DNA of 64,000 nt from sequence record PX068454.1. One strand, 5' to 3'. The notes under the pieces are model-generated. The model was given only the letters and a program-made list of their open reading frames with translations. It had not been told where the DNA came from and made no database searches. A program made the position numbers and the translations under genes. This document shows positions 5,549 through 50,929 of the stretch, piece by piece; position 1 is the first letter of the stretch; every line of letters starts with the position of its first letter. The DNA comes from a phage.

Positions 5549-6538
5549 ATGAATCTTGAAAAATATTATACACCAGAAGAGTTAGAGCGCTTGCTCAAAA
5601 AATACAGACGCAAACAGAATAACGCACGGAAACGGGATATAGAGTTCAACCTGTCATGGGAAGAATATCTCCTATTTGGTAAAAAACTTTTAGGAGAGGG
5701 AGTATGCGACTATACCCTTATACCTTTCGACATGCACACAGATGAAAACGGACTGGGAAATCCTTTCTACCCATCTCTGGAGCGGATAGATGATGAAGGT
5801 CCTTATGCGGTTGATAATTGTTGTGTGGTGGGATTGAGATGCAACTCCCTAAAGGACTGCCTGGTAGATAAAAAGACCGCAGTCTTGATTAAAGACAAAA
5901 CTGATCGAAAAATTGTCCAGCAGATGATGCTCCACCTGAGCGAAGAGCGTATGGAGAAATTGAAAGGTGATTACACTTTTGAAGATTTCATCTTGCAATA
6001 TGGAACGGAAGAGGATAAACTGGCACTCTTTGACGAAGAATGGGAGGAAGATATGTCACCAATGCAGGATTTTAAAAACTTCATGGCTAATCGTGGAGCC
6101 AACAAGCACATTTCTGACATTGTAAACGAGCCTGTAGTAGAGGAGATTGAAGAGATGACGCAACAGGCTTACGAAGAGGAAAAAGAGCCTCAAGGGGTCG
6201 AAGAAGAGCTTACAGAAGAGGTTCCTGCACTGCCTGACGATGTTGAGATTGCCAAAGCTTACACTTTCTATTGCCAGACGTTCTACGATGCAGGTATGAA
6301 AGTTGATCTGTCCTTCAGCCAGTTTAAGAGCACATACATTCGAAAATGTTGTGCTTTAACTGGTGAGCGTCTCGGGGCCGGACTTAAACCACTATTAGTT
6401 ACCGACTGGAACAAAGGTTTCACCAAAGGTAACTTCATGGTAGTATCTCCAATCATGGAAAAGGCTATGACAGACCTTATGAAGACCACTCGCATGACAA
6501 TGACCGAGTTGGCTGGTATTTTCAAGCACGTTAAATAA
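5549..6538 (+). CDS. early protein with internal duplication and central acidic linker; function unknown
   Basis: ORF-track start 5483 lies upstream of the promoter -35, so start moved to in-frame ATG 5549; N-terminal segment (FNLSWEEY...GEGVCDY...) and C-terminal segment (DLSFSQF...CCALTGERLG...) look like repeats flanking an E/D-rich linker. Confidence 0.55.
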   Translation: MNLEKYYTPEELERLLKKYRRKQNNARKRDIEFNLSWEEYLLFGKKLLGEGVCDYTLIPFDMHTDENGLGNPFYPSLERIDDEGPYAVDNCCVVGLRCNSLKDCLVDKKTAVLIKDKTDRKIVQQMMLHLSEERMEKLKGDYTFEDFILQYGTEEDKLALFDEEWEEDMSPMQDFKNFMANRGANKHISDIVNEPVVEEIEEMTQQAYEEEKEPQGVEEELTEEVPALPDDVEIAKAYTFYCQTFYDAGMKVDLSFSQFKSTYIRKCCALTGERLGAGLKPLLVTDWNKGFTKGNFMVVSPIMEKAMTDLMKTTRMTMTELAGIFKHVK

Positions 6539-6542
6539 TGAC

Positions 6543-6568
6543 AGGGGCCATTGGCCCCTTCTGGAGTT
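6543..6568 (+). terminator. intergenic hairpin AGGGGCCATTGGCCCCT, attenuator or terminator-like
   Basis: Perfect 7-bp GC stem between 5549..6538 and next gene; near-identical palindrome recurs at 12562. Confidence 0.35.
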
Positions 6569-6571
6569 TTA

Positions 6572-8032
6572 ATGGATAGCAGAAGTTCAGAAATCATTAC
6601 CGCACAAAAAGATGATGCCTTGCGAATGCTGCAGGCCGCTCGCATGTACCTTCTTGAAAAGCTGCCGTTTTATGGCACACTGTTGTCAGGGTTGCAGTTC
6701 GTAGAAAACCACACATGGTGCTCCACTATGGCAACAGACCATAAACGCATCTACTACAGCCCTGAGTTCATTATGGGGTTGGCAGATGAGCGTAAAACCA
6801 TTCTTAAAGCATCTCTGACTGACAAGCAGTTTGAGATGGCTGAGGTTTTCTATTCCCCAAAATCTGTGAAAGAGGTGGCCTTTCTTCTGTCACATGAGGT
6901 GGGGCATATTATCTGTGATCATCTGGTCCGTGGTAAAAGCTTTGAGCCGGAACTGTTCAATATTGCTTGTGATCACGTTATCAACACAGGTCTTGTGGTT
7001 GACTTTAGCAAGCCTCCTTGTGTTTTCTTCCCGAAGGGGAAAAGCACTGAGTTCGTAAAAGGTAAGCCTTTTGGCTTCTTAGCTAGTTGCTACTGTGACA
7101 TGAAGTTTCATGGATGGATTGCTGAGAACGTCTATGCAGTTCTTGATAAACAAAGAGATCAGAATGGCGGTAAAAGTAAGAACGGTAAAGGTGAGAACTC
7201 CCAAGGAGATAAACGACAAACCGATGATCACATGAGGGGGAACGGTGGCACCAGTGATGATCTTGGAAAGGCTATGGGGTATGATCAGCCGCAACCAGTA
7301 ATCAGTCAATCTGATAAAGATCAGGCCATGCAGGACTCTGGTGACATGTTGGAAGCAGCAATGCAAGCTTCAGGAGGTCGTTGCCCTGAGGCGGTGCGCG
7401 AGTTTGTCAAAAACAAAGGCAAGCCTGTAATCAACTATATAGATATTATTAAGCAACGTATGTTGTCTAAACGAAAGGCCGAGCTAACCTACAGAAAACC
7501 TGGTCGCCGATCTGGGTCTTTGACCACCACAATGCGAAAAGTTGGAGCTATAAACAAGAATCAACACGTTATTGTTCCTGGTCGTAATCCGGAAAACACC
7601 ATAGATATTGTAGTGGCTTTGGACGTTTCTGGATCGATCTCGCAAAGAACTTTAAAGAAAATGTTCAATGAGATCACCGGGTTGTGCAATTTGTATAAAG
7701 AGTTTAAGGTTACGATGTTCTGTTGGTCAACCGAGGTTGGAGAGGTTAAAGTATACACTCGCGGTAACATCGATGAGATGATCAACTATGAGGTCCACTC
7801 AACATGGGGCACAACAGCCGCCTGCGTGTTCGAGTATCTGGATGCTAACATACCGAATGCAAAAGATGTCATCGTCCTTACCGACCTCTACTTTGAGCAT
7901 AACTTTGAACAAAAGGCTGTTGACAACAAGTGGAAAAAGTACGATACTTTATGGGTTCTCACCGAAGGGTATAATAAAAATTATATCCCGAGCTTTGGGA
8001 AAACTGTGGAATTAATCGAGTATGCTAAGTAA
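6572..8032 (+). CDS. VWA-domain protein with N-terminal HExxH metallopeptidase-like domain (DUF2201-type architecture)
   Basis: HEVGHIICDH zinc-binding-like motif in N-terminal half; MIDAS motif VALDVSGSIS in C-terminal half; start taken at ATG 6572 (SD GGAG) rather than 6551 inside hairpin. Confidence 0.7.
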   Translation: MDSRSSEIITAQKDDALRMLQAARMYLLEKLPFYGTLLSGLQFVENHTWCSTMATDHKRIYYSPEFIMGLADERKTILKASLTDKQFEMAEVFYSPKSVKEVAFLLSHEVGHIICDHLVRGKSFEPELFNIACDHVINTGLVVDFSKPPCVFFPKGKSTEFVKGKPFGFLASCYCDMKFHGWIAENVYAVLDKQRDQNGGKSKNGKGENSQGDKRQTDDHMRGNGGTSDDLGKAMGYDQPQPVISQSDKDQAMQDSGDMLEAAMQASGGRCPEAVREFVKNKGKPVINYIDIIKQRMLSKRKAELTYRKPGRRSGSLTTTMRKVGAINKNQHVIVPGRNPENTIDIVVALDVSGSISQRTLKKMFNEITGLCNLYKEFKVTMFCWSTEVGEVKVYTRGNIDEMINYEVHSTWGTTAACVFEYLDANIPNAKDVIVLTDLYFEHNFEQKAVDNKWKKYDTLWVLTEGYNKNYIPSFGKTVELIEYAK

Positions 8033-8047
8033 GAGAGGATAGTATTT

Positions 8048-8305
8048 ATGGCAACAGAGGTAGTAATTAAAGCTGAACGCCCAGTTAAAAAAGCTATCAA
8101 CACGTTCCCTGTAGGAACCATTGTGAGCATGATTACAGAGTCAGGCCGTGTATCTACACTGCTAATCGTGAAATCTGCATGCTCATCTTGTGTGTGGGCA
8201 TACGATCTTGACGAGAAAGAACTGAAAGATTTTGTCGGGGAGCTGAAAGCAACAGAGCTTGACGCTCGTATCGAAGTATTTGGTGAAACTATGGAGGAAG
8301 AGTAA
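8048..8305 (+). CDS. small early protein, tandem paralogue 1
   Basis: 85-aa ORF; sequence pattern shared with next two ORFs. Confidence 0.5.
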   Translation: MATEVVIKAERPVKKAINTFPVGTIVSMITESGRVSTLLIVKSACSSCVWAYDLDEKELKDFVGELKATELDARIEVFGETMEEE

Positions 8306-8568
8306 TGACTACAAAAATCACCATTGCAGAACCAAAAGCTAACACGCAACCTATCGAAAAGTTTAAATGCGGTGAGGTGGTAACATTCACACCAGATAAT
8401 GAAGATGCCAAGATTTTTGCCATGGTTACAGCCGAGTGGATGTGTGACAATACCACACAGGTGCTGCGTTTTGACACCTATCTTACAGATGAAATCAGGA
8501 ACGACAAGATCGTGACTGGTGTGGATACTGAGATTATTTTCTACAAGAGCTTTTTAGAGGGTTTCTGA
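8305..8568 (+). CDS. small early protein, tandem paralogue 2
   Basis: 87-aa ORF; TAATG overlap with previous gene. Confidence 0.5.
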   Translation: MTTKITIAEPKANTQPIEKFKCGEVVTFTPDNEDAKIFAMVTAEWMCDNTTQVLRFDTYLTDEIRNDKIVTGVDTEIIFYKSFLEGF

Positions 8569-8569
8569 T

Positions 8570-8803
8570 ATGGCAAAAATTCGTAAATTATCCAGCAATC
8601 AGGTTGTGAAAGACTTTGAATCTGGAGAGATCTTGTATGTCCGTGATGCAGATGATGAATGTGAAGATCTTGTTATGCTGGTAGGGTACGCTGAAGACGG
8701 ATGCATCCAGGCTGTTTTTCTTGAAACAGCGATGGTGCACTGGATAGAGCTGGACCTGAAAGCACGAAAACCTAAAGCAGAAATCATTATTTACGAAGAT
8801 TAA
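8570..8803 (+). CDS. small early protein, possible tandem paralogue 3
   Basis: 77-aa ORF, 1-nt spacing. Confidence 0.45.
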   Translation: MAKIRKLSSNQVVKDFESGEILYVRDADDECEDLVMLVGYAEDGCIQAVFLETAMVHWIELDLKARKPKAEIIIYED

Positions 8804-8819
8804 CAAGAAGGAGAGAGCC

Positions 8820-18282: not shown

Positions 18283-20028
18283 TTAACGTTGTGCAATTAC
18301 CACGTCTACGATATCACCAACACCGCAATACGTTAATTGCAGCAAGGTAACACTGTTAGCCTTGTTGTTAATAACAGGTGTTGCCGACAGGATAGCATAC
18401 TTATCGTGCAAAGTCACGTTGTGACCTACAGCATCCTGAATTACATAGATAACTGCAGTGAATGGATAAGGTTTATCTTCCGCTGATGTACCAGGCCATT
18501 GTCCTATTGTAAAATCCCCTTTCGCGTGGACAACATACATACTGGCCTGCCCGTTAGGTGTCCATGTCCCACTGGACGCGTCAACCTCCTCTAAATCAAA
18601 ATCTACCTTTCCTGCGTGGAAAGTAGGGGCAGTAATGGTTTTACCCGCCTCAATTTCTTGAGAGGTGGTTATCTTGCCACTGGAGTTAATGCCATTACAA
18701 ACAAAGTTGACATTGGAGAAGTCTGGCAGCCACCCAGTCACTGTGCCGGATATTTCAAGGTTGTGAAGGTGGGTGGTGCCCGTCCCTGCTGCGTTTAAAC
18801 TAACATCTCCATCTACCTGCAAGTTTCTGGTAACGTTGCAGTTTTCAGAGTTTGCAGTTGTTGCAGTTAAAGTAGTGGTTGTCAGCTCGGTAATTACACC
18901 TTTGTTGGCTGTAAGCCCTTCCCCTTCAAAAGTTGCACGCTCATTGACTCTTAGGGTATTCAGAGCTATGTTTTGGATAGAGGCTGTACCTCGAATAACT
19001 ACAGATCCGCCAACTTCTAAATCACCATTTATTAATGCGTCCCCCGTGCTTTCAATATAGCTAGGGTAAATCATGGTGCCATCGACAGAGTAGGTTATCC
19101 CTGTAACAGTACCTGTCACCTCAAGGTTCTTAACCCTGGTGGTCCCATCTACCTGCAATGTCGGTTCGGTTGCTGCCTTCATGGCATTACCACGAATGTA
19201 CACGTAGTCAAAAAAGTTATTACCTAGACCATCAAAATGCACATCGTTGTTATTAGCCACTGGTTTCCCAGAAGTTATAGTGTCAGCTATAACTCTGTGA
19301 GTTGATACTTCATGAGGTTGCAGCTCTGTGCTTCTCCAGTCTGCATGCTTAGGATCGCTCCACGCAAAAGTTAGTGTAGAAGTATTTGCCGTAAGGATTA
19401 GGTTCCTGAAGCGTGCAGTAGAATCTGCTCCATTAACAGGTCCGTGTAAGGTAAGGGTGCCCCCAACTATGGTGTTGGCAAGTTCTGTAAGACCTTTTAC
19501 CACCAAAGATCCTACAGTAACTTTCATCCCCTCCATGGCTTTAAATATGCTATCCACATAGTCAACAACAAACTCTGTGTTTGCTATAGATTCGGACTTA
19601 TCGTCCATTGGAGGTGTAGGTACTCTCGGGTCACCTTCGAACCTTGGACTGTTAAGTTTTGCGTAGTATTTTGCCATTACTGCAGAATCGGTATATAATC
19701 TCCAGTTCGGAGATTGTGAAGGATCTGCTGGCATCCTAACCGGGTTAGATTTTGATGCTGCTGGGGCGTACCACCACTGAGTGCCTGTATCCCCTTTAAA
19801 CTCGTACAACTGGTTAAAAACTGTTGTGGATGCACCATACGCCCAAGGGATTGGTGGCGTTTTAAAATAAAGGGTGTCAAGCATGGCTTTTCGTACCGTA
19901 GGGATAGTGGTCCCATCCTCTACGACAACTTCATCCACAGCGTTACCGTTGACAATCAAGTGCAAACGTTCAGAATCAACAATTACTTGATCTACCGCCT
20001 GCTCGAAGCTTGTCATGTCTTGCGCCAT
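18283..20028 (-). CDS. tail fibre / tailspike-like protein
   Basis: 581 aa, Gly/Thr/Asn-rich beta-type repeats (LEVTGTVTG, LEISGTVTG). Confidence 0.65.
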   Translation of the reverse strand: MAQDMTSFEQAVDQVIVDSERLHLIVNGNAVDEVVVEDGTTIPTVRKAMLDTLYFKTPPIPWAYGASTTVFNQLYEFKGDTGTQWWYAPAASKSNPVRMPADPSQSPNWRLYTDSAVMAKYYAKLNSPRFEGDPRVPTPPMDDKSESIANTEFVVDYVDSIFKAMEGMKVTVGSLVVKGLTELANTIVGGTLTLHGPVNGADSTARFRNLILTANTSTLTFAWSDPKHADWRSTELQPHEVSTHRVIADTITSGKPVANNNDVHFDGLGNNFFDYVYIRGNAMKAATEPTLQVDGTTRVKNLEVTGTVTGITYSVDGTMIYPSYIESTGDALINGDLEVGGSVVIRGTASIQNIALNTLRVNERATFEGEGLTANKGVITELTTTTLTATTANSENCNVTRNLQVDGDVSLNAAGTGTTHLHNLEISGTVTGWLPDFSNVNFVCNGINSSGKITTSQEIEAGKTITAPTFHAGKVDFDLEEVDASSGTWTPNGQASMYVVHAKGDFTIGQWPGTSAEDKPYPFTAVIYVIQDAVGHNVTLHDKYAILSATPVINNKANSVTLLQLTYCGVGDIVDVVIAQR

Positions 20029-20037
20029 GATTTCTCC

Positions 20038-20304
20038 TTAAGCTTTTTGCTCTTCGTTTTTAACGTGGTCAGGGTGCTGGCAACCCCACCGGAGCGAGAT
20101 GAATTTGCTAATAAGCTGGGGGCAAGCTACCGAAGGTGCGTATATCCACGCATACCATTCAGGAAGCGTATCATTATACCCCATATGAATAAACACCCCA
20201 GTCATCACTGCCATGCCTATGTTTGACCATAGCTTAGATTGGGACACTTTCGTAGGGTCATCAGATGCCGCAACCAACCCCCATAAAAACTGAGTTAATT
20301 TCAT
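20038..20304 (-). CDS. small hydrophobic protein (membrane or fibre-assembly candidate)
   Basis: 88-aa ORF with hydrophobic segment NIGMAVMTGVFIHMG. Confidence 0.45.
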   Translation of the reverse strand: MKLTQFLWGLVAASDDPTKVSQSKLWSNIGMAVMTGVFIHMGYNDTLPEWYAWIYAPSVACPQLISKFISLRWGCQHPDHVKNEEQKA

Positions 20305-20313
20305 TTACCCTCT

Positions 20314-21360
20314 TTAAGCATAAGATATCGTGATCCATTGACCGTTTACAAATTTTTGAATAGCACCAGTCCAATAGTCACCTTGATACGGGTGTTTATA
20401 GGCGTAATTGCCGGAGCACATTACATGCCCAGGGTATACTCTTGATTCTCTGTAGGTGGTTCTGAAACGGTTTGCTATCCTTACATCTTCAACACCCCTA
20501 CTAGGCATAGGGATAGTAAGGTTACCACTGCTATCTGCGCTACTACCATTTACCCTGCGGACCACGTTTCTCCCACCAACTGTTGCATATTGACCTCTGG
20601 CGGTTTTATCGTTACAATCTACTCTTCCACCTATTTGAGCGCTGCCGCAGGATTGTTGTCCATTAACAGTGGCTCTTGGTATCGTTACCGCATTGGCATT
20701 TGCAGAGGAGCTTTTTGCATCATTGCATTCAAGATTTCCTTGGATAGCCAGTCTTGCACGGTTGGCAGTTATAGCATTGAGCTTCATAGCCGAAAACACA
20801 GGCTGCCCACCAGAAGGTTGAAATCTCCAACGGAAACCGTCTATTTGGTGAGAAGGATCATCAAGGTCTGTGCCGTCAGCGCCACCGATGTTGTCCATAA
20901 TCCAGAAATCCATCATCGTCTTGTCTGGAGTTATGGTGGTGTATATCGCCGCATTGTCTGTTGACGCAGATGCAAACTCAATTCTTTGAAGACCTAAAGT
21001 TTGAGTCTGGATCATTGTGTCTCCAGTCTTGTCAACATAAAGGTCATCCATTTCTTCAGGCGAGTATACATTGAGGACTTTACGTGCAGCAGCTTTGTCT
21101 GGAACGTCTGCCAGATTATTAGTGACCCTTAAGAATCTATTGTCCCATCCGGGGACAACATCTTCTGTTAAATGCTTTAGCCACGCAGAGAGCATGTGGA
21201 GTTCAAAGTTAACAACTTCACATGCTATCCTTTGTGTCATATCCCAACCTTTCAATCTCTCTTCTTTGTTCGGTTGAGACTTGTTCAACTCTCCTGTATT
21301 TTCAAGCACAACATCCTGATTGGCCCAAATATCAAGAGGGATAACTGGTTTAGTCATCAC
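20314..21360 (-). CDS. tail fibre / receptor-binding protein, paralogue A
   Basis: 348 aa; shares N-terminus (PLxIWAxxD, KGWD) and C-terminus (VNGQWIT.SYA) with 22373..23413. Confidence 0.7.
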   Translation of the reverse strand: MMTKPVIPLDIWANQDVVLENTGELNKSQPNKEERLKGWDMTQRIACEVVNFELHMLSAWLKHLTEDVVPGWDNRFLRVTNNLADVPDKAAARKVLNVYSPEEMDDLYVDKTGDTMIQTQTLGLQRIEFASASTDNAAIYTTITPDKTMMDFWIMDNIGGADGTDLDDPSHQIDGFRWRFQPSGGQPVFSAMKLNAITANRARLAIQGNLECNDAKSSSANANAVTIPRATVNGQQSCGSAQIGGRVDCNDKTARGQYATVGGRNVVRRVNGSSADSSGNLTIPMPSRGVEDVRIANRFRTTYRESRVYPGHVMCSGNYAYKHPYQGDYWTGAIQKFVNGQWITISYA

Positions 21361-21447
21361 GTTCTCCTGAGAAAATTCCTTAAGGACTATTTTAACACTT
21401 TAGAGAACAAAATGCAAGAACGGCATCCTTGCCGTTCTGGCCTTTGT

Positions 21448-21762
21448 TTACCTTTTACTATGCTCTACAAGCATGTGTAAAATCTTTTGCACATCAGCTC
21501 TGATACCGGAGACATCTGTCCTGACATCTTGCTTAAGGTCGTTAATATCGGCCTCTAGCTTACTTAACCGGGTCTCGATAATGGAATCAAGTCTATCTTT
21601 TGTAACCATGCTATTTTTCACTAAAATGAGGTCTTTCTCCAGCTCATCCAACCTCTTGGAAATGCCTTTCCATTTGGTGTGCCACTGGTTGAAAGCCCAT
21701 ACACAGATCGGGACAACGGTACCCATGCAGATACCGTACAATGCCGCCAAATCCAACTCCAC
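21448..21762 (-). CDS. membrane-anchored coiled-coil protein
   Basis: 104 aa, N-terminal hydrophobic helix LYGICMGTVVPICVWAF then heptad-rich region. Confidence 0.5.
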   Translation of the reverse strand: MELDLAALYGICMGTVVPICVWAFNQWHTKWKGISKRLDELEKDLILVKNSMVTKDRLDSIIETRLSKLEADINDLKQDVRTDVSGIRADVQKILHMLVEHSKR

Positions 21763-21773
21763 AACACCTCCTC

Positions 21774-22358
21774 TTAGAGGGTAGGTCGTTCCGGGAAGAA
21801 AATGTCAGGGGCTTTAGATGTATCTATTTCAAGAAGTTTTACCCTGTACATTTTCAAATCTCTGATGTTGCGTTTTTGGTCATCAGTAAGATCGTATTCA
21901 AGGTCAATCATGTCTTGATAGGCACCAATTCTAGCAGTAGCCCAAGCAAGTTCTGTCTCTATGACACCCTCTGCCTGTTGAACAAAGAATTCATTGTCTG
22001 TGACAAATTCATCACCAACTAAACGCAAAGCGTCGTGGTGGAGCATAATGTTTTCTGGTACCTCTTCTTTTTTGGCGATAACCACACGAAGACCTGGAGC
22101 AGGCCACAAGGCATCAGGTTCTTCTGTAGATGTCTTAAGAATACCCTTCTCGTCAACAAGTAAGAAGATACAGCCTGGATTTTCTTGTCGCAGTGTTCGT
22201 GATTGCACATACCAATCGCCATCATCATTACGTAAAAAATATCCAGTGTATGCTGTGTAATCCTCAACCTCCTGAGGAGTCAGCTCCTTGGTCTCCTTGT
22301 TGGTGTAGTATTCGCCAGATCCCGGCTGGTAAAGTTTAAACTCTTGAAGTATTTTCAT
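21774..22358 (-). CDS. hypothetical protein between fibre paralogues
   Basis: 194-aa ORF. Confidence 0.55.
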   Translation of the reverse strand: MKILQEFKLYQPGSGEYYTNKETKELTPQEVEDYTAYTGYFLRNDDGDWYVQSRTLRQENPGCIFLLVDEKGILKTSTEEPDALWPAPGLRVVIAKKEEVPENIMLHHDALRLVGDEFVTDNEFFVQQAEGVIETELAWATARIGAYQDMIDLEYDLTDDQKRNIRDLKMYRVKLLEIDTSKAPDIFFPERPTL

Positions 22359-22372
22359 GCTAGTCCTCCGAT

Positions 22373-23413
22373 CTACGCATAATTAACAGTGATCCATTGA
22401 CCATTTACAAGTTTTTGTAAAGGTCCTGCCCAGTAGGTTGAACCACGCATCTCTTTTTTATCACCAAAATGCCAACCTGTGACAACGTAGCCGTTGCGAA
22501 CTGGAGATTCAGAAACACCATCAACAAGTCTTGCACCGATTCTGATATCCTGTACCCCTGTCTGCGGGATGGTGATCGTTACATCGCCGTTACCGTTAGC
22601 CGTCACTCCATTCACAGAGCGCACCACATTTCTGTTACCGACAACACAATGCTGGCTTCTTACAACCATACTGTCACAACTTGCGCCGCCATTAACATAT
22701 ACGGACCCAGCTGTCAACTGACTAGCCACATTACAGTTGGTGAATGTTGCTGTGCTGCTAATGGTAAGGTTGTTACACCGCATGTTATCGACAACTTCAA
22801 CATTACCTACCACTTTCAACAGCGCACGGTTAGCCGTGATCGCGTTCAGGTACATCAAAGTGAACTCTGGATTAATGTCTGGCTGAGTTGGCTGGAATCT
22901 CCAACGAAACGCATCTACTGTAGATGTGCCACCATCATCAAACGCCCCAGTGTTATCACTTAACCCAAAGTCGAGAGTTGTCTTATCTGGACCAATAGTT
23001 GTCTCTATCCAAGCCTTATCTGTCTCGGCAGCTTTAAAGTTGATACGCTGCAAACCTAAGGGGCCTGTCATTGTATCGCCTGTAACTTTTACATACCTGG
23101 CGTCTGCCTCTTCCTTAGTAATAATCCCAAGGTTTCTACGGGCAACAGGAATGTTCAAAAGATCGCTCAGGTTATTATCACGTACCAGATAACGGCCCTC
23201 TTGGGCAGGGATCTGCTCGTCAGCAATATATTTTGCCCAAGTCCCGAGCATATTGAAAATATAGTTAAGTTCTTCACATGACGGCTTTTGACCAAGATCC
23301 CAACCTTTTCTCCACAAATCATCAATCGGGCGTAGCCTGTTCTGTCTGTGGGTGTTAGGCAGAACCTGATCCTCCTCTGCCCAAATCTCTAATGGAAAAC
23401 TAGGTTTTGACAT
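22373..23413 (-). CDS. tail fibre / receptor-binding protein, paralogue B
   Basis: 346 aa; conserved ends with paralogue A, divergent centre. Confidence 0.7.
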   Translation of the reverse strand: MSKPSFPLEIWAEEDQVLPNTHRQNRLRPIDDLWRKGWDLGQKPSCEELNYIFNMLGTWAKYIADEQIPAQEGRYLVRDNNLSDLLNIPVARRNLGIITKEEADARYVKVTGDTMTGPLGLQRINFKAAETDKAWIETTIGPDKTTLDFGLSDNTGAFDDGGTSTVDAFRWRFQPTQPDINPEFTLMYLNAITANRALLKVVGNVEVVDNMRCNNLTISSTATFTNCNVASQLTAGSVYVNGGASCDSMVVRSQHCVVGNRNVVRSVNGVTANGNGDVTITIPQTGVQDIRIGARLVDGVSESPVRNGYVVTGWHFGDKKEMRGSTYWAGPLQKLVNGQWITVNYA

Positions 23414-23425
23414 TTTATCTCCTGA

Positions 23426-25498
23426 TTATGAGAAGTCTGGCGGAACAACATCTTCTACATACCCTTTCAGAGCAACCTGCCCCATATGCAGAACAGTAGA
23501 ATCTCTGGCGGTAACAGTGATGCTGTCAGACATTACTTGCGGGTATGCCCACACATACTGTTTTACCTCAGGGTATCTATACTCTATGGTTGCCATGTTT
23601 CCGCAAATACATCTCCATAAAAATTCTTGGTAATTCCTGGTTGGGTCGTAGCCATATACCGGAGCAAGCTCTTTGCTAGGAACGAACCCTGCAAGGTATT
23701 GTATTTCAGACGGTTTCCAACCTAACTTAACGATAGGTATGTTTACAGACTCTTTTGCCTTTTCAATACCTCCCTGCATCACCCAATCGTAGCACTCAGT
23801 GCAGAAGAAATCAAGAGCACCTGCTTCCTTTTTATATTGGTCAGCAAGGTTCAGTTTTTGCGTAAGCTCGGTTTCCATAATAGTGGGGAAAAACAGTAAA
23901 GCTGTCATCTGAGCTGATGCAGCGTGTGCTTTTATTGCCTTTGAAATAGCTGCAATACGAGCGCCAAGCTTACCACGACAAAATGCTACATACTTGTCAT
24001 AAACACCGCCAGTTTTAGGATCGTCAATAGTCCCAATGTCTAGTGCATATTCACCAGTCTCATCATAAAACGCCTGCTTTGTAGGGTAGTCATAAATACA
24101 AGGCTTACGAGTATCGGTATTGAACCACCACCACGGTTCACCAATCTGCATAATCACTGGCAGGTTGTTTCTCATAGCGGCTGATGCAAAATTCTTAAAT
24201 ACTGCAGTAAGGAAATTCATGCCCTCTTCAATGGTTGGAGACAGGAGGTAACTACAAGGCGTATAGCCTGTTTTAGCATAGTTATCGTTCCAGTCTCTCT
24301 GGGTCCATTCCAACGGACAGGCATCGCTATAAAGCTCAAAGCTTACAGACTGCATAACGTCGAAGTCATGCCGTTTGGCGTTGTACATAAAATCATCATG
24401 CCATTTATAAGCTGCAGCGTTTAGAGCTCCTGTTTTGTTTATAGACCATTGGGTTCCTGACCATGTGTAGTCATAATAATGGCTCATACCAACATAATGG
24501 TTTATGGTTCCTGTATAGCCCAGACGCTTGATATTACTCAACACCCTTAAAGGGGATACGTTCCACATATCGTCATATGCTGTGCAGATCCCAACATCGT
24601 GTTCTTTCACCTGAATATTGTTAAGTTGCATCATTTTCCAGCCTGTGTCCGGCTGAAGAAGATCTAGACGCAACTCACATTCTACATTTTCCGTTCTCGG
24701 GTCTGTACTATTACCTACCCAATCTTTAGGCATAAGTGGTATTAGAATCCTTCTCACCTGCCGAGGATCAACACCCATCATGTTGTTGTTCTGGTCCATC
24801 CCGACGCAGTCCTCGAAATCAATATGAATTTCTGCAACATTCTTATCCTCTGAGATGCTGACAGCATATTGAGCTAAAGGAACATAGATGATTGTACCAT
24901 CAACAAGGTCTACAGTCATAATCATCTTTTCAGGGGTGGAGAAGTTGCTGGCATTGGTTATTGACATTCTGAACCAAAGCTTGGTGTTTCTCATCTCGTA
25001 GTGATCATCAAATCCAATGCCGAAATGGTCATACTTGTCAACTGTTTCCCAAATGCACCCAGCCATGCCTCCATATGTTCTTGACACTAAACGGTTAATA
25101 CAGCAGTTATTATCCGCAACAATACAGGTGCTTTCAGTCTGCTGTGTGGTTGTAACCCAGTATCTTGGGTGAAACATTCTCTCCTCAACGGTATCCCAAG
25201 ATATTCTGTCAAGATTCTCATCTGAAACTATTGTACATTTCGCTCTTTGTGTTCCAATCATAACCCCTTGGGAGTTTGATGAAAACTCCATAAAGAAGCT
25301 TCTTGGCAACCTGTTTGGCAATTTGTCAACAATTTCTACAGGGATCTCAATACTGGTTGCCCCAACCGGGATAGTTACATCGCCCTCAACATGATCATAA
25401 TCCCTACCCGGAACTGCAGTATCCTGAACTGTGCGGTAATGAAACCGTGCAGCCATTGTAGAGTAATCACGGTAAGGTTTAAAAACAGCTGTTGCCAT
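23426..25498 (-). CDS. tail-associated protein with N-terminal Calx-beta-like domain
   Basis: 690 aa; DYDHVEGDVTIPVGATSIEIPVEIVD resembles Calx-beta motif. Confidence 0.65.
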   Translation of the reverse strand: MATAVFKPYRDYSTMAARFHYRTVQDTAVPGRDYDHVEGDVTIPVGATSIEIPVEIVDKLPNRLPRSFFMEFSSNSQGVMIGTQRAKCTIVSDENLDRISWDTVEERMFHPRYWVTTTQQTESTCIVADNNCCINRLVSRTYGGMAGCIWETVDKYDHFGIGFDDHYEMRNTKLWFRMSITNASNFSTPEKMIMTVDLVDGTIIYVPLAQYAVSISEDKNVAEIHIDFEDCVGMDQNNNMMGVDPRQVRRILIPLMPKDWVGNSTDPRTENVECELRLDLLQPDTGWKMMQLNNIQVKEHDVGICTAYDDMWNVSPLRVLSNIKRLGYTGTINHYVGMSHYYDYTWSGTQWSINKTGALNAAAYKWHDDFMYNAKRHDFDVMQSVSFELYSDACPLEWTQRDWNDNYAKTGYTPCSYLLSPTIEEGMNFLTAVFKNFASAAMRNNLPVIMQIGEPWWWFNTDTRKPCIYDYPTKQAFYDETGEYALDIGTIDDPKTGGVYDKYVAFCRGKLGARIAAISKAIKAHAASAQMTALLFFPTIMETELTQKLNLADQYKKEAGALDFFCTECYDWVMQGGIEKAKESVNIPIVKLGWKPSEIQYLAGFVPSKELAPVYGYDPTRNYQEFLWRCICGNMATIEYRYPEVKQYVWAYPQVMSDSITVTARDSTVLHMGQVALKGYVEDVVPPDFS

Positions 25499-26184
25499 TA
25501 ACCCTCCTGTCTAGTTGCGTTTACTGTAATACTTTCACAATAAATAGTTGTGGTATCCCAATCAGGTCTTACGTCAGGAACATATAACAAAGTAGCCAGC
25601 CCACCAACCCCGAACTGGTTTTCTTCCCACACTGATCCGAAGCCGAGAGCTGTAGAGTCTCCTTCAAAACCAAAAGCTTGCCCTTGCGACTCCGTAAGAC
25701 GCAAATGACAAGGCAATGGCAGCATATCTAAGATCTGGTCGATAGACTGCAATATGTCAAAGCAAGTTTTTCTAATGTTTATGTCAAACCTGAAATTGTC
25801 ACCTTTCCACGTATCGAAATTGTCTCTTCCGAACAATTGTCGCAAGGTGGAGATGACATCTTCGCGAGTCCCACCCCTTGATGCTGCTGCTTGCTGAATA
25901 ACCAGGGTAGCACGAAAATCCGCATCTGAAAGCCCATTCCGAAGAATACCGAGTTGATTACCAACTTCGTCAAGGTATCTCCCGCTGGCATTGTTAAGCA
26001 ATCTTCCTTCAGCCAAGCCTACCAGCATTTTATCAACATTCTCCAACCTTTTAAGGTACACGGTTAAGAATGTGACTAAATTAACCTTCTCAGCCAGAAA
26101 ATCTCCAGGCAGGTAATCAAGACCTCCCTGAACAAAATCTGGCAGAGTGTGGATGTGGTTGACATCCGACTTAATCTCTGCCAT
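25498..26184 (-). CDS. structural (baseplate or fibre-associated) protein
   Basis: 228-aa ORF, start overlaps upstream stop. Confidence 0.55.
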   Translation of the reverse strand: MAEIKSDVNHIHTLPDFVQGGLDYLPGDFLAEKVNLVTFLTVYLKRLENVDKMLVGLAEGRLLNNASGRYLDEVGNQLGILRNGLSDADFRATLVIQQAAASRGGTREDVISTLRQLFGRDNFDTWKGDNFRFDINIRKTCFDILQSIDQILDMLPLPCHLRLTESQGQAFGFEGDSTALGFGSVWEENQFGVGGLATLLYVPDVRPDWDTTTIYCESITVNATRQEG

Positions 26185-26195
26185 ATCTCACCGCC

Positions 26196-27686
26196 TTAAA
26201 TAGTTTGTTGGAAAGTTATATTACTTTCGTCTAGGTCAAACACCTCAGTCATGTTTGCAACAATATCGTTTGTAGTGTAAGCCTCATCAGAGGCTCCCAC
26301 AGGTTTGACTTGAATTACAAGTCTGTTAAATCTGCCTATTGACACAGCAGCCGATGCAGCACCAACCAATTGGATATTGTACAACGTATCTGCAACATCC
26401 AGTCCGTTAACAACCTGCAAAAGAGCCTCTACAATGGCATCTTTTTCGGTTGTGGAAAGCGCAGCACCTGAGTAGGTAATTCTTACATCTAGGCGGTAGG
26501 TATTTGCCTTGGAGTAATAAATCCTTTCAGTCTGACCGTCTGATGTGGTAATATCGTAGAAGATATTCCCATAAGTTCTGTTTGTGCAAGCTATGGTTTG
26601 ATACAGCGCCTGACAGATATCCTCTGTTGCACCACCAAACACCACCACTTGAAACTTATAAGGTGGTATACCTTTCGCATCCGTTTTATCGGTGTTGTTG
26701 GAGAACACTCTTACTTTCTCAACACCTTTCACCTCGCTTACAGCGCTAAGGATTGCAGGACGGGTAGCTTTAGATGTCAGCTGTTTAGTGCTGGAAGCTC
26801 TTAAGCGATACTCAGAGTCTTTCTCAACATCCCTACCCTCATTGAATCTTTCTCGGTTGGTAAGCTTGATAAATCCACTGGGAGTAGGTGACATTGTTGT
26901 CACGGTTTCTGCCTCTCTTGACAGCTCACCAGCCTCGTTAGCGATAACATCTAGGGTGATAGTTCTTTCACCTACAATCGGGGATACTCTGAAATCTACT
27001 CTGCTATTAAGCCCAACTTGATCAAGATTTGAATTGTATCCTATCCACAACGTTCCTGTCAACATATCTATCTGAATTAAATCGTCGTTCAACAGGGTTG
27101 TATTATCTACAATGAATTGCTTAATCTCTCCGTAAAAGCTTGGTAAATCAGAAGAGTCCAGAGACTTATCGGTTAAAACCAGACTTTTTGTTTTGATACT
27201 TCCATCTGTCTGGTTAGTAATTTGAAAGTTGTATTTACCGATTCTTAGGTCTGGAGCGTTTATTCTGTGAGCAATAAGATTTCCCGCCACCTGCACGTCA
27301 CTGCTAAGAACAAAGTTACCACTATCCAGCGTGTAGGTTTTGGAATCATAAATCATATTGTACGGCACAGTTGTGTTAATTGTCAACTGGCAAGTACCTG
27401 ATGATTTAGAACGGCCTCTTCGATAAATACCTTGCCTTCCAAGAAGTTCATCAAGGTAAATACCTTCTGCCCCATAAAGCGTCTGCGATGCGTATACAGA
27501 TGCTGCCATAAGAATAAGTTGATACTCTCGCTCGTTGAAGATAGTGGTCAGCTTATCTGCAACGGAGTTACTTTGTACGTTGAAGTTTTCGCCAAAAGCA
27601 CGGATCAGGCTTTGCTTAGTTTCAACGATTAGGTCATTTAGAGTTGGTATAACGAAACCAGCCTCTGTCAATCCATACTTAGCCAC
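26196..27686 (-). CDS. structural protein, possibly baseplate J-like
   Basis: 496-aa ORF; assignment by position and size only. Confidence 0.55.
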   Translation of the reverse strand: MAKYGLTEAGFVIPTLNDLIVETKQSLIRAFGENFNVQSNSVADKLTTIFNEREYQLILMAASVYASQTLYGAEGIYLDELLGRQGIYRRGRSKSSGTCQLTINTTVPYNMIYDSKTYTLDSGNFVLSSDVQVAGNLIAHRINAPDLRIGKYNFQITNQTDGSIKTKSLVLTDKSLDSSDLPSFYGEIKQFIVDNTTLLNDDLIQIDMLTGTLWIGYNSNLDQVGLNSRVDFRVSPIVGERTITLDVIANEAGELSREAETVTTMSPTPSGFIKLTNRERFNEGRDVEKDSEYRLRASSTKQLTSKATRPAILSAVSEVKGVEKVRVFSNNTDKTDAKGIPPYKFQVVVFGGATEDICQALYQTIACTNRTYGNIFYDITTSDGQTERIYYSKANTYRLDVRITYSGAALSTTEKDAIVEALLQVVNGLDVADTLYNIQLVGAASAAVSIGRFNRLVIQVKPVGASDEAYTTNDIVANMTEVFDLDESNITFQQTI

Positions 27687-27754
27687 GTCACTCCTCCGGT
27701 ATGAAAATCTCTACAAGGTATTTTACCAAATTTTGTAACAATAGTCAATCTGAG

Positions 27755-33198: not shown

Positions 33199-33260
33199 TG
33201 TGCCTCCAGGTTAAACAATCATGATAGTTATTTTACCAGATTTTGAGTTAATACGCAATA

Positions 33261-47328: not shown

Positions 47329-47492
47329 TTTATAGCATCCTTATTAGTCATGTTGTGCACCATATTTGTGTATTTTACCATGATTATGGTGCATTGTCAA
47401 TTTAACCTTTCAAGCAATTCAAGAACGTGTGTCAAAACCATAAAAAGCAAAAAAGCCCCACCCGAAGGTGAGGCTTATGCTAAAGTGTGCCC

Positions 47493-50888: not shown

Positions 50889-50929
50889 TAATGTATTTTA
50901 CCACAAAGATACATCAAAAGCAACAATTT

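Follow-up and report, generated by a model that had tools for sequence, protein, structure and literature searches.

The locus occupies positions 20,038 to 23,413 of the window, which is the whole 64,000-nucleotide stretch of phage DNA that was analysed (PX068454.1), and all of its genes and elements lie on the minus strand. In the direction of transcription it begins with the gene for a short tail fibre, copy B (STF-B; 22373..23413, 346 aa), which matches PHROG 4465 "tail fiber protein" with an E value of 4.5e-171. This is followed by the gene for a tail fibre assembly chaperone (Tfa; 21774..22358, 194 aa) and by the gene for a 104-aa protein (21448..21762) that has an N-terminal transmembrane helix and a coiled coil and belongs to PHROG 5345 (unknown function, E = 1.1e-48). 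An intrinsic-terminator-like hairpin (21417..21438; a stem of 9 bp with 5 GC pairs, a loop of 4 and the tail TGCATTTTGT) and a late-promoter-like motif, TGTTAAAATA (21388..21397, pattern TGBTAAAATA), precede the gene for the second short tail fibre, copy A (STF-A; 20314..21357, 347 aa; PHROG 4465, E = 4.7e-163). The last gene encodes an 88-aa protein (20038..20304) that contains two hydrophobic segments and ends in a charged C-terminus; it matches PHROG 1322 "membrane protein" with an E value of 2.7e-32. The 194-, 104- and 88-aa reading frames lie between and after the fibre genes as the initial annotation described them, and both fibre reading frames that it listed are present on the minus strand, but the start that it gave for STF-A probably needs correction, from the GTG at 21360 (348 aa) to the ATG at 21357 (347 aa). 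An AGGAG precedes this ATG by 6 nt, and the start agrees with the deposited annotations.

Over 8 kb the window is 96-98% identical in DNA to FV3, ECP32 and related Vequintavirus phages, and 111 records cover at least 80% of the 8-kb query at an identity of at least 90%. Judged from its sequence, the source phage is a Vequintavirus, an rV5-like myovirus of E. coli. ORFs 28-36 of rV5 are matched gene by gene in the window, nine genes in identical order, so that the 88- and 104-aa proteins correspond to gp29 and gp31. STF-B is the orthologue of gp33 (ORF 33; 98.8% amino acid identity, 4 positions differing), Tfa of gp32 (ORF 32; 99.0%) and STF-A of gp30 (ORF 30; 96.0%, 14 scattered positions differing); these are direct orthologues that show no material difference from the rV5 proteins. 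The study of rV5 by Kropinski et al. in 2013 described gp30 and gp33 as virion proteins that are 42.3% identical and put forward the idea that they serve two LPS chemotypes (PMC3606486). Mass spectrometry of rV5 virions detected gp30, gp32 and gp33 (PMC3606486), so the two fibres are not the non-virion proteins that the initial annotation had allowed for. A fibre of this class was also observed by cryo-EM at the baseplate of Bas49 and Bas54 (PMC12143355). Additionally, Maffei et al. (2021) annotated the Vequintavirus members of the BASEL collection as having "two paralogous short tail fibers plus chaperone", homologues of Mu GpS/GpU, and found the short tail fibres to be without large allelic variation (PMC8594841). 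A locus of two short tail fibres and one chaperone is real but ordinary, and it has been published already. In the searchable literature we found no experiment that separates the roles of gp30 and gp33.

When STF-A and STF-B are compared by BLASTP they align from the first to the last residue with 153/356 identities (43%, E = 5e-95), and shuffled-sequence controls give an identity of 13% with a maximum of 18%. Chance similarity is ruled out by these values, and the paralogy that had been proposed for the two proteins is confirmed. The proposal that they have conserved ends and a divergent centre does not hold. In 30-column sliding windows the identity peaks in the centre, at 60-63% in columns 106-150 and 50-53% in columns 181-225, and in an eight-sequence alignment it reaches up to 68% there, so that the centre (60-68%) is the best conserved part. 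The identity is lowest in columns 46-90 (27-30%), 211-270 (27-30%) and 301-345 (30-33%), the last of which directly precede the conserved final 12 residues. Conserved ends with a different middle are found across phi92, Phapecoctavirus and Justusliebigvirus, not between the window copies. The motifs PLxIWA...KGWD and VNGQWIT occur in both proteins, but the longer form VNGQWIT.SYA fits one copy only, the two C-terminal tails being VNGQWITISYA and VNGQWITVNYA. Profile comparison identifies VNGQWIT as a family-wide hallmark of fibres of the Mu gpS type, including Mu S and the phiTE short tail fibre.

Both proteins are tail fibres with an N-terminal attachment domain, which agrees with the receptor-binding-type reading of the initial annotation: residues 1-82 of the fibre profile match the phiTE short tail fibre (9cuy) with E = 1.9e-37. 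As single sequences, residues 1-108 of STF-B match 9cuy_c with E = 1.5e-19 and STF-A does so with E = 2.2e-8. At the other end, residues 286-343 of STF-B match Mu gpS (5yvq; E = 1.4e-6). STF-A is linked to Mu gpS only through the profile, since its single sequence gives no match to 5yvq in the PDB at E <= 1. Profile positions 282-351 match residues 436-503 of 5yvq_A (E = 3.1e-12), shaft positions 75-203 are matched as well, and the profile also finds the Mu S/S' chimera 8ju3 (2.9e-5). An AlphaFold2 monomer model was of low confidence (pLDDT 60.5, pTM 0.29) and does not establish the tip geometry or the position of the variable loop; in Foldseek the sole significant match of this low-confidence model was 5yvq_A (E = 4.4e-6, probability 1.00). 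We show here by profile and sequence matching that each fibre has an N-terminal domain of ~80-100 residues that is homologous to the wedge-docking part of the phiTE short tail fibre, followed by a conserved shaft and a C-terminal tip of ~65 residues that is homologous to the tip of Mu gpS. The products of 228 and 496 aa are taken as the wedge proteins.

Several known fibres can be compared with this architecture. Like the window fibres, Mu GpS (5yvq) has a C-terminal tip with a Q-K-x-[VI]-N-G-x-W-Y strand and alignable shaft motifs (GDTxxG, TDxAxI and FxWR), and as in the Mu GpS/GpU arrangement a Caudo_TAP gene lies immediately downstream of STF-B. Unlike Mu GpS (504 aa), the window fibres are ~160 residues shorter and have an N-terminus of the phiTE/Vequintavirinae type, and the window has no invertible G segment and no S'/U' genes but two tandem full-length fibre genes with one chaperone. 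The glucose of the K-12 core that Mu targets is also a different one (PMC8594841). The short tail fibre of phiTE (phiTE_236; 9cuy/9mjn) is homologous over the N-terminal 82 and last ~90 residues, and its whole locus is syntenic, running from baseplate J and a baseplate protein through the fibre, Tfa and three membrane proteins to the phiTE_241 fibre. Residues 3-92 of this fibre dock on the wedge 1 protein (PMC11972413). It differs in being a single 554-aa protein with a long coiled coil and Ig-like domains in a flagellotropic phage, whereas the window has two fibres of ~347 aa; phiTE also carries the 157-aa phiTE_239, which has no homologue in the window. The phi92 gp147 fibre and its Phapecoctavirus and Justusliebigvirus counterparts share homologous N- and C-terminal parts with the window fibres (in tblastn two end pieces, 47-48% identical, together cover 38% of the query), but they are single-copy and have a different central part. 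In phi92, gp147 has been assigned to fibre III, which points downward on the wedge protein gp145, and it is similar to the fibre of Mu (PMC13450770). T4 gp12 is a functional analogue, as it is a baseplate-attached trimer with the LPS core as its terminal receptor. Similarity of rV5 gp30 and gp33 to T4 gp12 was reported from HHpred by Kropinski et al. (PMC3606486); single-sequence and profile searches of the PDB returned no T4 gp12 chain at E <= 1.

Tfa is assigned to Caudo_TAP (PF02413) through residues 121-192, which match positions 60-130 of the 131-position model at E = 1e-11 and 45.5 bits (Pfam gathering cut-off, 22.1 bits), and to PHROG 136 "tail fiber assembly protein" with E = 9.7e-37. 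Its gene lies directly downstream of STF-B. The window has no second Tfa gene, tblastn with the 194-aa protein returning itself only, and STF-A has no Tfa gene of its own there. A phmmer search of the PDB with Tfa gave no meaningful match and no Mu Tfa chain. In Mu, Tfa is stated to occur in the virion, in a passage of PMC9608196 that cites North et al. 2019. The suggestion that the smaller proteins could be dedicated chaperones or membrane factors is thus right for the 194-aa protein, which is a Caudo_TAP chaperone; for the two membrane proteins no link to chaperoning could be detected. The 104-aa gene directly follows Tfa throughout the Vequintavirinae (Av-05, SEW_6S, GAP31, BIS47, Hena1 and phiTE_238), and its product has sub-threshold Pfam matches only. 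The 88-aa gene lies just upstream of a ~580-aa fibre gene across the Vequintavirinae; the protein is 100% identical in rV5, Bas59 and HMD-6, has homologues in Av-05, SEW_6S, GAP31, BIS47 and Hena1, and matches nothing in Pfam or NCBIfam. None of the three small membrane proteins searched has a Pfam match above threshold, and none of the seven proteins searched has a match in NCBIfam.

The two fibre genes are separated by signals that point to different transcription units. The 87-nt intergenic RNA that contains the terminator-like hairpin folds at -27.6 kcal/mol (z = -3.6), and the hairpin would close a unit extending from the baseplate genes via STF-B and Tfa to the 104-aa gene. The element TGTTAAAATA beyond it matches the late-gene motif of rV5, TggTAaAAtA (PMC3606486). 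In the window there are 5 copies of the pattern TGBTAAAATA, always on the minus strand, compared to 0.81 expected, and 0 of 100 shuffles reached 5; one of these copies, at 27719-27728, follows a terminator and lies ahead of the baseplate J gene. Upstream of its second fibre gene, L015 likewise has a comparable hairpin and a TGCATTTT element, and a weaker one is found in the L010 lineage. STF-A therefore appears to head a late transcription unit of its own, with the 88-aa gene and the gene for a 581-aa fibre rather than with STF-B and Tfa. The idea of one scaffold that carries two alternative specificity domains does not fit this organization, as the copies are two complete, separately translated genes in what appear to be two late transcription units.

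The order of genes in other phages indicates how the second copy arose. In six other Vequintavirinae genomes from five genera a single fibre gene is followed by the Tfa, 104-aa, 157-aa and ~88-aa genes and then by the long fibre gene. STF-B is the positional orthologue of that single short tail fibre, and STF-A occupies the slot of the 157-aa gene, which encodes a polytopic membrane protein in the other genera; neither the window nor any rV5-like record was found to contain a homologue of it. Identity to the single-copy orthologues of Av-05, Seunavirus and Mydovirus is 42-48% for STF-B and 37-39% for STF-A. In the tree the A clade is sister to the B clade (bootstrap 86/100), and the A branch is about three times longer. 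The A and B clades being sisters, an origin of STF-A by horizontal transfer from a different group of phages is unsupported. In a search of 5.8 billion proteins, which returned three matches in all, nothing besides rV5-type orthologues was nearer to STF-A than STF-B is, and the nearest outsider in the phage collection, from Enterobacter phage FENT2, is 43% identical, merely equal to STF-B. In 64 of 116 records STF-B shares at least 99% identity with its counterpart in the window, and for STF-A the values are mostly 95-99%; between the L010 lineage and the window STF-B is 88% and STF-A 77% identical. These comparisons show that STF-A is a duplicate that arose within the Vequintavirus lineage and is the derived copy, with a sequence that has evolved two to three times faster than that of STF-B.

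The copies also differ in what they have kept at each end. The ~100 N-terminal residues, which had been taken as shared, are copy-specific in the eight-sequence alignment and are conserved as such across three lineages; the second copy of L015 is 53-63% identical to the window STF-A in this region and 27-43% to STF-B. The motif RPIDDLW is present in STF-B, in all single-copy orthologues and in phiTE and is absent from STF-A, where this segment reads QPNKEER. In the tip, a 14-residue loop of STF-A reads CSGNYAYKHPYQGD in place of the ancestral TGWxFGxKKExRGxT (the counterpart loop is TGWHFGDKKEMRGST), and this replaced loop is conserved between the window and L010 lineages. Between the STF-A proteins of these lineages the tip is 80-97% conserved and the shaft falls to 57-70%.

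We consider the locus to be a short-tail-fibre locus in which one Caudo_TAP chaperone is encoded between two paralogous fibres of the Mu gpS type, with a probability of about 0.8; the functional steps are inferred. Both fibres would form homotrimers and start to fold at the C-terminus, assisted by the single Tfa, which may recognise a C-terminal strand found across the family and kept by both copies, Y-W-x-x-x-[IL]-Q-K-x-V-N-G-Q-W-I-T. A homotrimer that carries Tfa on its distal tip, as in fibres of the Mu gpS type, has indirect support in that rV5 gp32, like the Tfa of Mu, occurs in virions. That one Tfa would serve both fibres is suggested by a single observation, the presence of only one Tfa gene in the window. 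The terminal receptor of both fibres would be the LPS core, since waaC and waaG mutants resist every member of the Vequintavirinae in the BASEL collection (PMC8594841). The derived tip loop could give STF-A a different sugar specificity and so extend the phage to a wider range of E. coli core types, and its altered N-terminus, which lacks RPIDDLW, could direct it to a different baseplate site or give it a different affinity for the same site. A more specific history is possible, though less likely than not: STF-A would have displaced the membrane protein gene, gained a late promoter and altered its wedge-docking N-terminus so as to take a separate baseplate site, and in the rV5 lineage only it would have acquired a new tip loop for a different LPS core.

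It is also possible, though doubtful, that both fibres bind the same LPS-core receptor and that the duplicate fills a second attachment position, which would put more fibres on each baseplate and contribute avidity or the geometry for triggering contraction and add no specificity. The copy-specific N-terminal ~100 residues and the loss of RPIDDLW from STF-A are consistent with this. The dependence on LPS seen with the waaC and waaG mutants is the same for phages with one fibre and with two, for which Maffei et al. suggested a common secondary receptor (PMC8594841). The shared dependence counts against the two-specificity reading. L015 bears on the same question. In its last 40 codons the two copies are 85-95% identical in amino acids and only ~45% identical at third codon positions, so that nearly the same tip protein has been kept although silent sites are saturated; this codon-level test rules out a tip swap between the L015 copies and indicates ancient retention under purifying selection rather than exchange. 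As the second copy of L015 keeps a B-like tip, a duplicate has been retained there without a new tip, which argues against a second specificity as the sole reason for having two copies. However, the 14-residue loop of STF-A was replaced and yet is conserved between the window and L010, which has the look of a distinct selected binding surface. Two docking sites are seen in no structure, and the cryo-EM maps at 7-9.5 A resolve only three fibre types near the baseplate (PMC12143355).

STF-A could instead have given up receptor binding and become a structural connector in the fibre network, for example by bracing the 581-aa fibre of its transcription unit. Its apparent co-transcription with the 88-aa protein and this phiTE_241-type fibre rather than with STF-B and Tfa would suit such a role, as would its altered and faster-evolving N-terminus, and in phiTE the long fibre touches the short fibre (PMC11972413). 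We regard this as unlikely, since STF-A retains the full Mu-S-type tip core and the C-terminal strand, and a tip that is better conserved than the shaft between the window and L010 is typical of a functional distal domain. The specificity of Mu gpS is switched by inversion of the G segment, and the homology of the window fibres to gpS, together with the common 63-nt 3' end of their genes (76% identity), could suggest a switchable cassette of this type or ongoing gene conversion and shuffling. This is very improbable. Both genes are complete and on the same strand, and no long inverted repeats flank them (the best is 25 nt at 76%), which refutes an invertible or shufflon-type cassette for the window. 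The longest exact DNA word common to the two genes is 14 nt, third-position identity is 10-45% over most of their length and ~69% in the last 16 codons, and synonymous differences are found even inside the conserved C-terminal motif; the short common word and these synonymous differences rule out recent gene conversion as the source of the conserved ends.

In the literature searched we found no mention of the single short tail fibre of the other genera and the position of gp30 in the 157-aa slot, the terminator ahead of gp30 with its own late-promoter motif, the faster evolution of gp30, its altered docking N-terminus and derived tip loop, or the absence of both gene conversion between the copies and an invertible segment. 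The evolutionary details (slot, late unit, N-terminus and tip loop) point to concrete residues, and they leave the current picture of these phages unchanged. Phages of the rV5 type are often considered for use against E. coli, O157 among them, in therapy and biocontrol, and their terminal-receptor fibres help to determine both which hosts are infected and how resistance arises in the bacteria. If STF-A does occupy a separate site with a new tip, the short fibres of Vequintavirus virions would fall into two distinct sets, and within one phage subfamily evolution would be able to change how many terminal-receptor fibres there are and how they are arranged.

The locus contains two Mu-S-type short tail fibres with phiTE-type docking N-termini and a single tail fibre assembly chaperone (Tfa), and it combines two transcription units, a duplication within the lineage and a faster-evolving second copy. 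An 8-kb query centred on the locus matched 119 phage records in a DNA search, and 111 of these covered at least 80% of the query with 90-99% DNA identity. The matching records are nearly all Vequintavirus, the rV5-like E. coli myoviruses, such as ECP32, FV3, JES2013, and BASEL Bas59. Additionally, 16-21 GenBank records named "Campylobacter phage" with C. jejuni as the host (MG065635, MG065655, MG065661, MG065662, MG065676, MG065690, and others) share ~95% DNA identity with this locus; the host labels seem to reflect either wrong assignment or contaminating coliphages.

The genes of the region are all encoded on the minus strand and correspond one-to-one with rV5 ORFs 36 to 27. In order of transcription, they encode a baseplate J-like protein (26196-27686), a 228-residue baseplate protein (25498-26184), a 690-residue N4-gp65-like protein (23426-25498; PF23845, E = 6.7e-80), the short tail fibre STF-B (22373-23413; rV5 gp33), the 194-residue Tfa (21774-22358; gp32), a 104-residue protein (21448-21762; gp31), and, following an 87-nt gap, the second short tail fibre STF-A (20314-21357; gp30), an 88-residue protein (20038-20304; gp29), a 581-residue fibre (18283-20028; gp28), and a 1878-residue fibre (gp27). 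The mechanical ORF of STF-A begins at a GTG one codon 5' of the ATG (21357-21360, minus strand), and the ATG, which is 6 nt past AGGAG, is the start in the deposited annotations (347 residues). The 690-residue protein immediately 5' of STF-B has a Calx-beta domain as well as the N-terminal and TIM-barrel domains of N4 gp65, and its PF23845 match is to the N4 gp65 "non-contractile tail sheath protein". A 2026 preprint tied NGR polysaccharide binding to a gp65-like deacetylase fibre found in Vequintavirus and Justusliebigvirus, possibly the 690-residue protein.

The initial annotation proposed two paralogous receptor-binding proteins with conserved ends and divergent centres, and its coordinates for them are accurate. 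STF-A and STF-B share 153 identities over 356 columns (43%, E = 5e-95) in an alignment spanning the first to the last residue. Shuffled sequences aligned globally gave a mean identity of only 13% and a maximum of 18%, so the paralogy is real. The N- and C-terminal motifs quoted for the pair exist, but the C-terminal one is not peculiar to them: the family consensus (YxRPIQKLVNGxWYTV), Mu GpS (VYIRPVQKNINGTWYNV), and the short fibre of phiTE (VYYKPIQKKVNGVWVTI) all have the same strand. The proposed pattern of conservation is contradicted by the alignment: in 30-column windows the identity peaks centrally (60-63% at columns 106-150 and 50-53% at columns 181-225), with minima at columns 46-90, 211-270, and 301-345, the last directly preceding the final 12 residues.

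The interpretation was correct in outline and has been in print since 2013. Kropinski et al. (2013) gave the identity between rV5 gp30 and gp33 as 42.3% (PMC3606486), and Maffei et al. (2021) described the pair as paralogous short tail fibres accompanied by a chaperone, homologous to Mu GpS/GpU, and noted little allelic variation (PMC8594841). In the RBPseg study, cryo-EM maps of two Vequintavirinae at 7-9.5 A showed a fibre of this type at the baseplate, and its Mu-like C-terminus was remarked on (PMC12143355); the phi92 homologue gp147 has been assigned to fibre III on the wedge (PMC13450770). In view of these reports, the two paralogous fibres with their chaperone are already known, and the possibility that both are non-virion proteins is contradicted by the detection of the rV5 orthologues in virions.

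Both fibres fall in PHROG 4465 "tail fiber protein" (E about 1e-163 for STF-A and 1e-171 for STF-B). A 27-sequence fibre profile made here was run against the PDB. Over its first 82 residues the profile hits the short tail fibre of Pectobacterium phage phiTE (9cuy, E = 1.9e-37); in the phiTE cryo-EM structure, residues 3-92 form the joint by which the fibre docks on the wedge 1 protein (PMC11972413). Over the final ~70 residues the profile matches Mu GpS in complex with the chaperone (5yvq, E = 3.1e-12), and the shaft motifs align with GpS too. The AlphaFold2 monomer model is poor (pLDDT 60.5, pTM 0.29), as would be expected of an intertwined trimer; its sole significant Foldseek match in the PDB is 5yvq_A (E = 4.4e-6). 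The segment RxL..xxNLxDvxxxxxARxNL, at residues ~70-100 of both fibres, matches a motif that occurs ~6 times in gp92, the short tail fibre of Pseudomonas Pakpunavirus P7-1 (9zd7 chain AE, profile E = 9.9e-24), and 1-2 times in Mu GpS; short repeats of this kind seem to be widespread in fibre necks.

A dedicated chaperone had been suggested among the neighbours, and the 194-residue protein bears this out: its C-terminal 70 residues match Caudo_TAP at 45.5 bits (Pfam gathering score 22.1), and it is the sole gene of this type in the window. As summarized in PMC9608196, Mu-type Tfa attaches to the distal fibre through its variable N-terminal domain, and trimerisation is driven by the conserved C-terminal one; Mu Tfa remains on the mature fibre (North et al. 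2019, cited therein). A chaperone role for the 104-residue protein (N-terminal transmembrane helix and coiled coil) or the 88-residue protein (two hydrophobic segments and a charged tail) finds no support. Pfam, PHROG, and NCBIfam searches assigned no function to the small membrane proteins, and rV5 gp29 and gp31 are absent from the published list of virion proteins (PMC3606486).

Six Vequintavirinae genomes outside Vequintavirus (Avunavirus Av-05, Seunavirus SEW_6S and GAP31, Mydovirus BIS47, Henunavirus Hena1, and Certrevirus phiTE) share the order of one short fibre, Tfa, 104-, 157-, and 55-89-residue membrane proteins, and then a fibre of ~580 residues or longer. The 157-residue polytopic protein is Pfam Phage_phiTE_239 in precomputed annotations; its gene is found neither in the window nor in any rV5-like record, and its slot is the exact position of STF-A. 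The membrane trio, whose 55-89-residue member has two hydrophobic segments, lies within the tail-fibre locus of all Vequintavirinae genera examined, Vequintavirus having lost the 157-residue member (21448-21762 and 20038-20304 in the window; 5638-6701 and 7728-8805 in compared loci L003 and L019). Lysis control or superinfection exclusion are possible roles.

STF-B is 42-48% identical to the single-copy orthologues versus 37-39% for STF-A, and neighbour joining groups the A and B clades as sisters (86/100 bootstraps), the A branch being ~3 times longer. STF-A is therefore a lineage-specific, fast-diverging duplicate. A foreign origin was not supported: a search of 5.8 billion proteins returned nothing closer to STF-A than STF-B, rV5-type orthologues aside, and the closest outsider in the phage collection (43%) merely equals STF-B. 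In 64 of 116 records STF-B keeps at least 99% identity to its window counterpart, whereas STF-A is mostly at 95-99%; relative to rV5, they carry 4 and 14 substitutions. No sign of gene conversion between the copies was observed, as the two genes share no exact DNA word longer than 14 nt and synonymous differences occur even within the conserved motif. Nor was there any sign of an invertible segment, since no significant inverted repeats flank the region.

The 87-nt gap 5' of STF-A contains a terminator-like hairpin (9 bp, tail TGCATTTTGT, fold z = -3.6) followed ~20 nt later by a late-promoter-like motif, TGTTAAAATA, and the two fibre genes therefore belong to separate late transcription units. 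Two diverged lineages have a similar hairpin and motif ahead of their second fibre gene. TGBTAAAATA, which matches the published rV5 late-gene motif (PMC3606486), occurs five times in the window versus 0.81 expected by chance, always on the coding (minus) strand (21388-21397, 27719-27728, 33229-33238, 47371-47380, and 50894-50903). In two cases the motif comes 35-40 nt after a strong terminator hairpin, a repeated terminator-then-late-promoter layout.

The two-fibre arrangement is also found in two diverged uncultured lineages, the ENA metagenome contig L015 (116-5371) and the Logan contigs L010-L012. STF-B is 74% identical to the window copy in L015 and 88% in L010-L012, a sister lineage (~75% DNA identity) whose STF-A is 77% identical. 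In L015 the second fibre has 354 residues, the 88-residue homologue is lengthened to 117, and Tfa is only 45% identical to that of the window. The first 100 residues of the L015 second copy are A-type (53-63% to STF-A versus 27-43% to STF-B), but its tip differs little in protein sequence from that of the L015 first copy. Third codon positions there are only ~45% identical, so this is ancient retention under purifying selection and not tip exchange.

In the main alternative, both fibres recognise a single receptor, and position or avidity is the reason for keeping the second copy. This view gains real weight from the L015 lineage and from the finding that phages with one fibre and with two depend on waa identically; every Vequintavirinae phage tested by Maffei et al. 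needed the waaC/waaG-dependent LPS core (PMC8594841). At the tip of rV5-type STF-A, a derived 14-residue loop, CSGNYAYKHPYQGD, kept in both the window and L010, takes the position of the TGWxFGxKKExRGxT sequence seen in STF-B, L015, and the single-copy orthologues.

In rV5-type orthologues, both fibres and Tfa are in the virion (PMC3606486), and the baseplate location and LPS outer-core dependence of published orthologues probably apply here. Both fibres would be homotrimers folding from the C-terminus with the aid of the single Tfa, which would recognise the C-terminal strand common to both. Since the N-termini are copy-specific, the fibres may differ in docking site or affinity, and the derived tip loop of STF-A would provide a second glycan specificity.
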